Shown one piece after another: positions 3,943 to 5,335 of a stretch of 7,620 nt of DNA. The position numbers were made by a program, and so were the translations under genes. The stretch is taken from IMG/VR virus record IMGVR_UViG_2667528065_000006; one strand, given 5' to 3'. Source of the stretch: a virus (taxonomy: Duplodnaviria; Heunggongvirae; Uroviricota; Caudoviricetes). Numbering within the stretch: position 1 is the stretch's first letter; each line of letters starts with the position of its first letter. The notes beneath the pieces were generated by a model. The model saw only the letters and a list, made by a program, of their open reading frames with translations. It was not told where the DNA came from and did no database searches.

Positions 3943-4327
3943 AAACGTCCCCGTTTAGCGCAGAAGTCACAGGAGTTGTTCAGGCTCCGGTGATACAATT
4001 ATGGCGAATTGATTATTCATAATCAAACAAGATAAGGTCTCAAACTTCATGCAAGCCAAGATTTATTTCTGACAGAATTATACAAAGAAGCTATTGGTCA
4101 GAATCTACTCGGACTGTAAAACATACGCATAACCTTAAGCTCTCACTTTAAGCATTGTTGAAATAATAGCCGTCAAGTACAACCTTAACCACGACTGGGA
4201 TATTTCCCTAGCTACCACGAGTTGTACTGCTATTAAACTGCCGTTAAATTCAGTAAGAGAATTTCATCCGATAAGTCAAGGCATGTAAAACATAAAAATT
4301 AACAAGATATTATCATCTGCAACACTA

Positions 4328-5335
4328 TTGTATGGTATGTCAATGGCCATGTCGGTCGGGAGTTGTGCAACACCTGTCCAGACTAATTTTCCTGGTTACA
4401 CCCCGGGTGCAGATATCATTAGTGTTTCACCCACCAGAAACCAGGTCGATCTCATTGGTGATGTTGTTTATTCCCAGATAAAAGGAACTCGTTCTGTCAG
4501 ACAGCTTCACATGTCAGTTCTTGTCCCGCGAACAAATGATTTAAAACCAGCCATTATTTATTATCCCGGCGGCGGATTCATGTCTTCTGAACATGACAAA
4601 TTTATTGAAATGAGAATGGCTCTGGCTGAAGCTGGTTTTGTTGTGGCCGCTGTAGAATACAGAACAATTCCTGATACATTTCCAGCACCAGTTGAGGATG
4701 GGAAAGCTGCAATACGTTACTTGAGAGAACATGCCAGCGATTATGGGATTGATCCTCAAAGAATCGGAGTTCTGGGTGACTCTGCCGGTGGATGGCTTGC
4801 CCAGATGATGGGAACTACAAATGGTGACAAAACCTTTAATAAAGGTGACTTTCTTCAGCAATCAGCAGATGTTCAGGCAGTTGCCACACTTTATGGGATT
4901 TCTGACTTGTTGAATATTGGCGAGGGGTTCCCTGAATCAGTGCAGGAGGTTCATCGATCTCCTGCCGTAACCGAAGCCTTAATGATCAATGGCCCTGCAT
5001 TCAGAAGTTTTGCGGGAGCCCCCATAACAGCGTCAAAAGAAAAAGCGCTAAACGCCAGTCCAATCGGACATATGAAAGGAGTAAAACCCCCATTTCTTAT
5101 TATGCATGGTAGCAAAGACACTCTGGTTTCACCTGAGCAAAGCGCCAAACTATTCAGGATGTTGAAGAAGAACGGCGATAACGCTGAGTACGTTCTGGTA
5201 GAAGGGGCTGAGCATGGCGATAATACATGGTATCAGCCAATTATTATAAACAGAGTTGTTGAGTGGTTTACTAAAAACCTGGGAACCCCCATAAAAACCG
5301 CTACCCAACAACAAAAAACAAACGCTGACCTGTAA
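4328..5335 (+). CDS. Alpha/beta-hydrolase fold esterase/lipase with a putative lipoprotein signal; start uncertain (TTG 4328 or ATG 4337; in-frame ATG at 4283 is followed immediately by TAA)
   Basis: Oxyanion-hole-like YYPGGGF, nucleophile elbow GDSAGG (GxSxG), later Asp (HGSKDTLV) and His (GAEHGD) in canonical triad order. The N-terminus ...MSMAMSVGSCATP fits a lipobox (Cys +1, Ala +2). No convincing SD precedes any candidate start. Confidence 0.8.
   Translation: MYGMSMAMSVGSCATPVQTNFPGYTPGADIISVSPTRNQVDLIGDVVYSQIKGTRSVRQLHMSVLVPRTNDLKPAIIYYPGGGFMSSEHDKFIEMRMALAEAGFVVAAVEYRTIPDTFPAPVEDGKAAIRYLREHASDYGIDPQRIGVLGDSAGGWLAQMMGTTNGDKTFNKGDFLQQSADVQAVATLYGISDLLNIGEGFPESVQEVHRSPAVTEALMINGPAFRSFAGAPITASKEKALNASPIGHMKGVKPPFLIMHGSKDTLVSPEQSAKLFRMLKKNGDNAEYVLVEGAEHGDNTWYQPIIINRVVEWFTKNLGTPIKTATQQQKTNADL

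Follow-up and report, generated by a model that had tools for sequence, protein, structure and literature searches.

The window analysed here, a stretch of 7,620 nt, carries an esterase gene on its plus strand, and the portion from 1726 to 7620 is 99.8% identical to DLP12-like prophages of E. coli. Judged by this similarity, the host element of the esterase gene is a DLP12-like lambdoid prophage of E. coli. The locus comprises the following features.

4050–5402, plus strand: esterase cassette, common to Escherichia sp. MOD1-EC7003; the gene with 242 nt upstream and 67 nt downstream
4278–4281, plus strand: AAGG, the sole Shine-Dalgarno (SD)-like element, with spacings of 1 nt to ATG 4283 and 10 nt to 4292
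4283–4288, plus strand: 5′-leader dicodon ATG-TAA, sharing the frame of the esterase gene, 3 nt upstream of the 4292 start
4292–4294, plus strand: ATA, very probably a mutated initiation codon (ancestral ATG; G4294A); ATG in 677 of 682 records
4292–4366, plus strand: predicted lipoprotein-type signal peptide, MKINKILSSATLLYGMSMAMSVGS/C (cleavage before C), with lipobox V-G-S-C at 4355–4366 and the Cys codon at 4364–4366
4292–5335, plus strand: putative ancestral full-length CDS, 347 codons plus stop, BD-FAE / alpha-beta-hydrolase esterase
4343–5335, plus strand: NCBI CDS in ATA genomes, 330 aa beginning MAMSVGSC, no signal peptide, WP_001251751.1
4388, plus strand: C-to-T change, Leu33Phe, the second change private to the ATA lineage; exact 57-mer in the same four genomes
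5340–5361, no strand assigned: GC-rich hairpin of 9 pairs, terminator-like, directly 3′ of the stop codon, with the T-run on the minus strand

The esterase gene is present in 681 of 5426 complete E. coli genomes (~13%), and its cassette is cargo occupying the slot bounded by ylcH/ybcN and ybcK. The blastn match to Escherichia sp. MOD1-EC7003, at 93.9% identity, is confined to this cassette. In DLP12 of E. coli K-12 the slot reads ybcK, then ybcL-ybcM-ylcH, then ybcN, with ybcL-ybcM standing where the window has the esterase cassette. The flanks are alike in K-12 DLP12 and in the esterase prophages: emrE, ylcJ and ybcK form one, and a ylcH-like gene, ybcN, ninE, ybcO, rusA, ylcG, quuD and a porin gene form the other. 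The cassette, which takes the place of ybcL-ybcM, is transcribed in the direction opposite to the phage genes. A scan of the plus strand from 3900 to 4292 gave no sigma-70 promoter at the threshold used, and the overall count of hits equalled the expectation from shuffled sequence. The window has three indels in ylcG/rusA, which are shared by no RefSeq complete E. coli genome (best match 97.4%). Two assemblies, GCA_009890605.1 and GCA_900449335.1, match the window at 99.8% and 99.7% identity with 3 and 9 gap openings, respectively.

By its sequence, the gene product is a BD-FAE-family esterase. The Pfam profile BD-FAE (PF20434) matches with 151.4 bits (E = 3e-44; cut-off 26.8 bits) and is covered from position 7 to 214 of 215. 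The motifs GGG (residue 93), GDSAGG (162), HGSKD (272) and AEHG (306) align with the matching segments of PDB 6NKF (E = 1e-36), the catalytic triad being assigned by this alignment; among solved structures, the closest are esterases and carbohydrate esterases. In common with other BD-FAE esterases, the protein has the GGG oxyanion and GDSAGG nucleophile motifs and is predicted to be exported, and it is 61–72% identical to homologues of Dickeya, Pantoea and Klebsiella. The closest non-prophage relatives are encoded 16–33 nt downstream of the phenolic acid decarboxylase gene (padC), together with a divergently transcribed LysR regulator in two of three contexts, and in a contig scan that gave nine distant orthologous loci, a sample too small to gauge padC linkage family-wide, padC is the neighbour in Erwinia tracheiphila and a Selenomonas MAG and not in the others. 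A Dickeya protein with 65% identity bears the UniRef name "Ferulate esterase". FaeD of D. dadantii is a feruloyl esterase secreted by the T2SS (PMC9007343), and the Dickeya homologue matched here may be another protein. The substrate class is probably that of a hydroxycinnamoyl (feruloyl) esterase.

The E. coli prophage copy departs from its relatives in that its predicted signal is of the lipobox type rather than the SPase I type, and it does not lie next to padC, no PadC remnant being found in the window. The possibility that the ATG-TAA dicodon is the tail of a degraded upstream padC was rejected on a tblastn search of four PadC proteins against the window, which returned a best E of 2.5. 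Because dN/dS is 0.12 relative to the orthologue of the sister species (Escherichia sp. MOD1-EC7003), the gene appears otherwise to be under constraint. Of 120 homologues, about 109 are hydrophobic at the N-terminus, which indicates that the family is mainly exported.

Read from 4292, the protein is probably a lipoprotein-type precursor according to a PROSITE PS51257-like pattern rule, which calls for K or R within the first 7 residues, an uncharged h-region, and a lipobox ending in a Cys located at position 15–35. The signal peptide of the 4292 form passes this rule with its Cys at position 25; V-G-S-C is a permitted lipobox, although not the commonest. The exact 51-mer that includes the TGT codon for this Cys is shared by 681 of 682 records. 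In two close variants the lipobox Cys is replaced by Tyr, and more distant homologues have SPase I-type signals. Every version that begins further downstream fails the same rule: TTG 4328 and the ATGs at 4337, 4343 and 4349 lie 5–12 residues before the Cys and leave no charged n-region.

There is no canonical start in the window from which this signal peptide could be translated, because 4292 reads ATA and the ATG at 4283 is closed by TAA. The original prediction, made from the window alone, had reached the same conclusion, and direct reading confirms its letters: ATG at 4283–4285, TAA at 4286–4288, a frame continuing after TAA from N-I-K to V-G-S-C, and TTG 4328 and ATG 4337 in that frame. 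Its feature, however, ended at 4352, short of the lipobox Cys codon. It also took 4283 for the natural start and the TAA at codon 2 for the lesion, and neither assignment agrees with the comparative data given below. What it missed is that the ATA at 4292–4294, read there as the fourth codon (the I of N-I-K), is one base from ATG.

Of 682 E. coli records, 677 carry the ATG form of a 57-mer centred on 4294 and four genomes (UPEC132, YP3, GN02350 and N50) its ATA form, while one record has some other difference in the 57-mer; these allele counts are exact 57-mer matches, and single bases were read in 11 loci. In the ATG genomes inspected, PGAP puts the CDS start at the position of 4292 (347 aa, MKINKILSS...VGSC), whereas in the four ATA genomes it puts the start at 4343 (330 aa). 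Beyond E. coli, the codons aligned with 4292 are ATG AAA in every one of the relatives L011, L014, L015 and L016 (74–79% identity) and L019 (96%). Thus, orthologues have a canonical start at this codon, no alternative in-frame canonical start in the window preserves the N-terminus, and the ATA form is derived and restricted to one lineage. The change at 4294 appears recent, since across 5.9 kb the ATA genomes can be told from KC-Dl-1, the closest haplotype with ATG, by 4294 and 4388 alone. We therefore put a probability of roughly 0.87 on the reading that the disabling change is G4294A (ATG to ATA), a recent start-codon loss confined to one lineage.

The reading in which ATG 4283 is the natural start and a CAA-to-TAA nonsense change at codon 2 disables the gene draws on the sister species. 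MOD1-EC7003, 96% identical in amino acid sequence, has ATG CAA AAC ATG at the dicodon site and is open from the upstream ATG, and some gene callers report a 350-aa form of its protein; L014, at 79% identity, likewise has an open in-frame ATG at −9 (ATG AAT AAA ATG). Nevertheless, the NCBI start of the MOD1-EC7003 protein is the second ATG, and L011, L015 and L016 lack the −9 ATG altogether but keep ATG AAA in alignment with 4292. Within E. coli, the ATG-TAA dicodon was seen in six of six copies read directly, and the TAA is part of the consensus 57-mer carried exactly by 677 of 682 records; the copies inspected are annotated as intact from the second ATG. The same consensus with CAA in place of TAA was found in 0 of 682 E. 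coli records. In the alignment, five other genomes read ATG TAA AAC ATG where the window reads ATG TAA AAC ATA, the rest being identical; the window thus differs from intact copies at 4294 and not at 4286. The polarity of TAA versus CAA depends on one usable outgroup, L014 with AAT, whose alignment is uncertain at this point. Finally, the AAGG lies just 1 nt from ATG 4283, forming a duplex of −3.5 kcal/mol with zero spacer.

Taken at the level of these alignments, the model of a nonsense change at codon 2 is largely refuted, and we consider it very unlikely. The ATG-TAA is a harmless sequence, as far as comparison of copies can tell, carried by every E. coli copy examined, and is not the lesion. 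A sense codon in orthologues had been proposed as the check on the original prediction. Such a codon, CAA, does occur, in MOD1-EC7003 alone, where the second ATG is kept and is the NCBI start. Conversely, orthologues with the same upstream stop, which that prediction had named as evidence against itself, do exist, though they start at 4292 and not at 4337.

SD strength does not discriminate between the candidate starts, all of which are near the background level. The AAGG duplex with the 3′ end of 16S rRNA has −3.2 to −3.5 kcal/mol, close to the window mean of −3.25, and the natural start at 4292 has −3.2. The earlier statement that 4328 and 4337 have no SD is broadly right, with −1.1 and −2.4 kcal/mol, respectively, but the natural start is also weak in this respect.

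A different possibility is that nothing has been lost, and that an internal ATG (4343, as chosen at NCBI, or 4337 or 4349) yields a relocalised, functional cytoplasmic esterase. PGAP annotates a 330-aa CDS from 4343, the catalytic domain (residues ~80–330) is untouched, and natural signal-less homologues of ~318 aa, starting about 15 residues before the LPGY motif, are found in Klebsiella, Kosakonia, Enterobacter and Pantoea. By analogy with these, a truncated cytoplasmic form might fold and be active. In addition, the ATA allele is unchanged across many assemblies, a persistence compatible with neutral drift of a lost gene as well as with some remaining use. Against this reading, the internal starts have no well-placed SD (−1.1 to −4.4 kcal/mol, spacers of 0–12 nt), and 4343 is the output of a start-selection rule of PGAP rather than evidence of use. 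The predominantly exported character of the family also argues against it, as does residue 33, where 113 of 120 homologues have Leu and none has Phe; the L33F substitution at so conserved a Leu suggests relaxed constraint in the ATA lineage. In our opinion, relocalisation to the cytoplasm is an unlikely outcome, and loss of the start codon remains the preferred reading.

Start-codon loss of this sort is ordinary gene decay, a known kind of event. As in other start-codon-loss alleles of accessory genes, one transition in the initiation codon is confined to one lineage and leaves the rest of the ORF intact, and the annotation pipeline re-calls a downstream ATG, which gives a shorter, apparently "intact" protein (330 aa versus 347 aa). 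The detail added here is that the sole upstream in-frame ATG was already closed by TAA, so that no fallback exists.

From the base change, its distribution, the start in orthologues and the family membership of the product, we infer the effect on expression and export as follows. The ancestral gene would have been prophage cargo encoding a secreted, lipoprotein-type BD-FAE esterase that starts at 4292, and the ATG located 9 nt upstream could not substitute for this start, being directly followed by TAA. The AUU start of infC is autoregulated, conserved and regulatory. Unlike it, the ATA described here is derived, occurs in 4 of 681 carrier genomes and is not a conserved feature. It resembles the near-cognate starts of E. 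coli (AUA, AUU, AUC and CUG) in that AUA is able to initiate, at ~0.02–3% of the AUG level. Specifically, AUA initiation in E. coli was found to reach 1–2% of AUG, or 0.02–3% depending on the construct (Hecht et al., bioRxiv 10.1101/063800). By these reporter data, AUA initiation at 4292 would supply no more than a few percent of the usual amount of precursor, and products of the internal starts at 4328, 4337, 4343 and 4349 would be neither exported nor lipidated. The ATA allele would then be a recent null or strong hypomorph with regard to the exported enzyme; that is, the secreted esterase carried by the prophage is probably silent or ends up in the wrong compartment. Of the original prediction of a "recent nonsense pseudogene" or a poorly exported product, a recent null or hypomorph, or an unexported product, thus remains probable, while the nonsense origin does not hold.

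The dicodon might still have a role of its own as a start-stop mini-ORF that tunes translation of the esterase, by occlusion or by termination and re-initiation 3 nt further on, and could in this way rescue the ATA codon. No E. coli copy examined lacks the dicodon, whose stop is separated from the main start by 3 nt. Support of a general kind comes from the finding that start-stops in E. coli bind ribosomes and modestly change expression of their host genes (Meydan et al., bioRxiv 10.1101/520783). However, the DNA on either side varies just as little, which makes conservation of the dicodon within E. coli uninformative; with CAA in the sister species the dicodon is not conserved, and the relatives at 74–79% identity do not have it. 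The hexamer ATGTAA occurs 5 times in the window versus 6.46 ± 2.37 in shuffles, i.e., not above chance, and the sole SD-like element lies 1 nt from the ATG. Therefore, of the properties expected of a mini-ORF, the locus has the ATG TAA at 4283–4288, while an SD-like sequence at a working distance and conservation beyond that of the flanks are both absent. The start-stops detected by Ribo-RET in yecJ and hslR (Meydan et al. 2019) lie inside genes, out of frame, with SD-like sequences and with demonstrated ribosome binding. In contrast, the ATG-TAA of the window is a leader element, in frame, lacks usable SD spacing and is known from sequence alone. A tuning function that could rescue ATA is accordingly highly improbable in our judgement. 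We are also very doubtful that re-initiation 3 nt downstream of a leader start-stop still yields precursor from the ATA allele at a useful, perhaps condition-dependent, level. If it did, the ATG-to-ATA change would be a tuning mutation rather than a loss.

The four complete genomes with the ATA allele, out of 681 carriers, are of diverse geographic and host origin (China, Australia, the USA and one other source). UPEC132 belongs to phylogroup B2, and is listed in the literature as "B2/ND". The allele was also read in GCA_009890605.1 and GCA_900449335.1, and the truncated 330-aa product WP_001251751.1 is on record on 184 contigs. These occurrences bear on the suspicion that the ATA codon reflects faulty sequencing or assembly of the genome from which the window was taken. 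In favour of an error one may cite the ylcG/rusA indels, found in no RefSeq complete genome, since with them the source assembly may be of lower quality. The linkage of ATA with T4388 in four independent complete genomes, the two further assemblies and the 184 contigs with the implied product leave the chance of such an error next to nil; independent assemblies already refute it.

Beyond annotation, the importance of the finding is small. Reading a single sequence picked the wrong lesion, and comparison of a few hundred genomes corrected it. The prophage-borne esterase itself, which in its intact form is probably an outer-membrane-anchored enzyme of hydroxycinnamoyl type, may merit attention, although the window adds nothing new in this regard. 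NCBI shows the start-codon-loss allele as an intact 330-aa "alpha/beta hydrolase" (184 contigs). Since this call looks intact, pan-genome analyses of presence and absence would count the esterase as present in the B2 ExPEC lineage, even though the exported form of the enzyme is, on the sequence of its start codon, probably missing from the B2 ExPEC lineage with ATA, represented by UPEC132.

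The gene annotated here as an 'alpha/beta hydrolase', an esterase, has undergone an ordinary, lineage-restricted loss of its start codon (ATG to ATA) as part of the cargo of a prophage, a known kind of event and one of low interest in itself. The original prediction placed the natural start at the ATG at 4283, disabled by a stop at codon 2. Direct reading of the window bears out the letters: the frame after ATG TAA continues AAC ATA AAA ATT AAC AAG ... GTC GGG AGT TGT, which translates as N-I-K-I-N-K-I-L-S-S-A-T-L-L-Y-G-M-S-M-A-M-S-V-G-S-C. The observation was real but misread, in that the start was lost nine nucleotides downstream; moreover, the feature end of 4352 was set too early to include the Cys codon.

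4283-4288, plus strand: ATG TAA, in frame with the esterase
4292-4294, plus strand: ATA in place of the ATG start codon
4292-5335, plus strand: ancestral full-length esterase coding sequence, 347 aa
4364-4366, plus strand: Cys codon of the lipobox

In the 98-99.9% identical copies inspected, NCBI has the 347-aa protein begin at the codon corresponding to window 4292. When five of these genomes are aligned with the window over 141 nt, only two columns vary: a SNP at 4251, in one strain only, and position 4294, where the window has A and the five genomes have G. Because ATG TAA AAC precedes 4292 in all six sequences, the aligned ancestral reading is ATG TAA AAC ATG AAA ATT ..., with a predicted protein beginning MKINKILSS. 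The ATG version of a 57-mer centred on 4294 is matched exactly by 677 of 682 E. coli records (complete genomes) and the ATA version by four (UPEC132, YP3, GN02350, and N50); in the latter, NCBI moves the start to the ATG at 4343, giving a 330-aa protein, MAMSVGSC.... The 51-mer around the Cys codon is matched exactly in 681/682.

Relatives also point to 4292. Four loci at 74-79% identity, the nearest ones beyond this cluster, all show ATG AAA in the corresponding place, and the hydrophobic peptide that comes next is similar and ends in S-T-G-C or S-A-G-C (Cys is replaced by Tyr in one variant). Only the 4292 start passes a PROSITE-type lipoprotein rule, with K2 and K5, an uncharged core, V-G-S-C, and Cys as residue 25; TTG 4328 and the ATGs at 4337, 4343, and 4349 lie 5-12 residues ahead of the Cys, are uncharged, and fail. 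Shine-Dalgarno evidence is weak for every candidate start (duplex energies of -1.1 to -4.4 kcal/mol vs a window mean of -3.25) and is not leaned on here; an AAGG at 4278-4281 is separated from ATG 4283 by 1 nt and from 4292 by 10 nt. In two close variant proteins, P0001 and P0004, Tyr occupies the lipobox Cys position (VGSY and STGY), which would make the lipoprotein signal a possible SPase I substrate.

The TAA is an old and harmless state, since the TAA-bearing E. coli copies inspected are otherwise intact and the gene, judging by a dN/dS of 0.12 between E. coli and its sister species (30 synonymous and 13 non-synonymous differences), is under purifying selection. Its only importance here is that, with the real start gone, the upstream ATG cannot step in as a substitute. 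Some relatives have an open in-frame ATG at -9, and TAA may derive from CAA. Escherichia sp. MOD1-EC7003, of the sister species (96% amino acid identity), reads ATG CAA AAC ATG AAA, with the CAA that the original prediction had suggested looking for in orthologues, but keeps the second ATG, which NCBI takes as the start of a 347-aa protein; a 350-aa form comes from other gene callers only. A 79% relative (ATG AAT AAA ATG AAA) likewise keeps the second ATG. The ATG at -9 is absent from three other relatives, and the CAA version of the consensus 57-mer occurs in 0/682 E. coli records. That ATG-TAA serves as a functional start-stop, as recorded elsewhere in E. coli (Meydan et al., bioRxiv 10.1101/520783), has a low probability: it is without a usable Shine-Dalgarno sequence, it is unconserved in the sister species and in more distant relatives, and the hexamer is unremarkable in frequency (5 in the window vs 6.46 ± 2.37 expected from dinucleotide-preserving shuffles).

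The ATA allele at 4292-4294 is both genuine and of recent origin. It is carried by four genomes that differ in laboratory, country, and host of origin (human urine, dog uterus, human blood, and human CSF); it is also found in two more assemblies, GCA_009890605.1 and GCA_900449335.1 (NCTC), and the 330-aa product is recorded on 184 contigs. Between the ATA genomes and the nearest ATG haplotype, KC-Dl-1, there are just two differences in 5.9 kb, at 4294 and 4388. The latter change, C to T, is private to the four ATA genomes and produces Leu33Phe inside an L-P-G-Y motif, where homologues have Leu in 113/120 cases and Phe in 0/120. That both private changes fall within the gene's first 100 nt, with the remainder of the 5.9 kb free of any, fits relaxed constraint after start loss, although two events prove nothing.

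The annotated surroundings are those of a DLP12-like lambdoid prophage, with porin, quuD, ylcG, rusA, ybcO, ninE, ybcN, and a ylcH-like gene on one flank, ybcK, ylcJ, and emrE on the other, and the esterase between them on the opposite strand; in K-12 DLP12, by contrast, ybcL-ybcM occupy this slot. The 4000-5400 stretch is matched by megablast in 682 of 5426 complete E. coli genomes, nearly always as one chromosomal copy. Only 4050-5402 is common to the window and the sister species (93.9% identity), which, on shared sequence, identifies the hydrolase as a self-contained cargo cassette. In MOD1-EC7003 this cassette (locus L019, 3759-5113) adjoins sequence matching window 7438-7620 with no intervening ybcK; thus, the cassette or ybcK moved independently. 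A GC-rich 9-bp hairpin directly 3' of the esterase stop codon (5340-5361) has its T-run on the minus strand and so would terminate transcription from ybcK, not from the esterase.

Other irregularities lie further left. The left end (1-540 and 540-1727) is mosaic relative to otherwise near-identical prophages, with a 25-nt insertion at 311-335 and a divergent patch at ~500-540; the porin gene is 98.8% identical, vs 99.8% right of 1726. In ylcG/rusA, three insertions (+G, +T, and the 8-bp AGAGGGAC) and three substitutions cluster at 2507, 2510, 2512, 2622, 2626, and 2767-2774. They are found in 0/5 near-identical relatives and in none of the complete E. coli genomes in RefSeq (best 97.4%). After ~55 codons rusA loses its frame and runs into in-frame stops, and ylcG is frameshifted; the source strain has either undergone genuine decay here or been misassembled.

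The protein matches Pfam BD-FAE (151 bits, E 3e-44) as well as Abhydrolase_3. Its motifs (GGG from residue 93, GDSAGG at 162, HGSKD at 272, and AEHG at 306) align with those of esterase 6NKF (E 1e-36), and the next-nearest solved structures are carbohydrate and acetyl-xylan esterases. Homologues at 61-72% identity occur widely across Dickeya, Pectobacterium, Pantoea, Klebsiella, Kluyvera, and rhizobia, and one of them bears the name 'Ferulate esterase'; in D. dadantii, the feruloyl esterase FaeD is secreted through the T2SS (PMC9007343). Each of the three closest non-prophage relatives, at 74-79% identity (L011, 2478-4047; L014, 1315-2889; L015, 302-2830), follows a phenolic acid decarboxylase gene (PF05870) at a distance of 16-33 nt, and a divergently transcribed LysR regulator is present in L011 and L015; the arrangement resembles a hydroxycinnamate esterase-decarboxylase operon. 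In Erwinia tracheiphila and a Selenomonas MAG, too, padC is next to a homologue. Together, the family matches, the named homologue, FaeD, and the decarboxylase and LysR neighbours point to hydroxycinnamic acid release from plant esters as the probable ancestral role. The prophage copy has evidently lost its padC neighbour, no PadC remnant being found in the window. Unlike most of the family, which have SPase I-type signals, it has a predicted lipobox. The residue following a lipoprotein Cys governs sorting (the +2 rule), Ala directing the protein to the outer membrane; here that residue is Ala, and the outer membrane would be the destination of the prophage esterase.

What remains after start loss would be little. 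In E. coli reporters, initiation from AUA reaches 1-2% of the AUG level, with a range of 0.02-3% across constructs (Hecht et al., bioRxiv 10.1101/063800), and by analogy a small amount of full-length precursor may still be made. Products of internal starts would be without a signal peptide and be retained in the cytoplasm. Since natural signal-less homologues of ~318 aa are present in other Enterobacterales, a cytoplasmic truncated enzyme is not absurd, but nothing points to use of an internal ATG. The same gene is flagged 'frameshifted' in several other E. coli genomes (U14A, O25b:H4, and EC67; matches H36, H98, and H107) or appears as 194-272-aa fragments in its protein cluster, which suggests either that this cargo gene has decayed repeatedly and independently or that homopolymers were misassembled. 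For the ATA allele, the most probable consequence by a wide margin is a null or strong hypomorph for the exported enzyme. The annotation conceals this loss: in the ATA genomes, PGAP records WP_001251751.1 (window 4343-5335) as an 'alpha/beta hydrolase' of 330 aa and does not mark it as a pseudogene.
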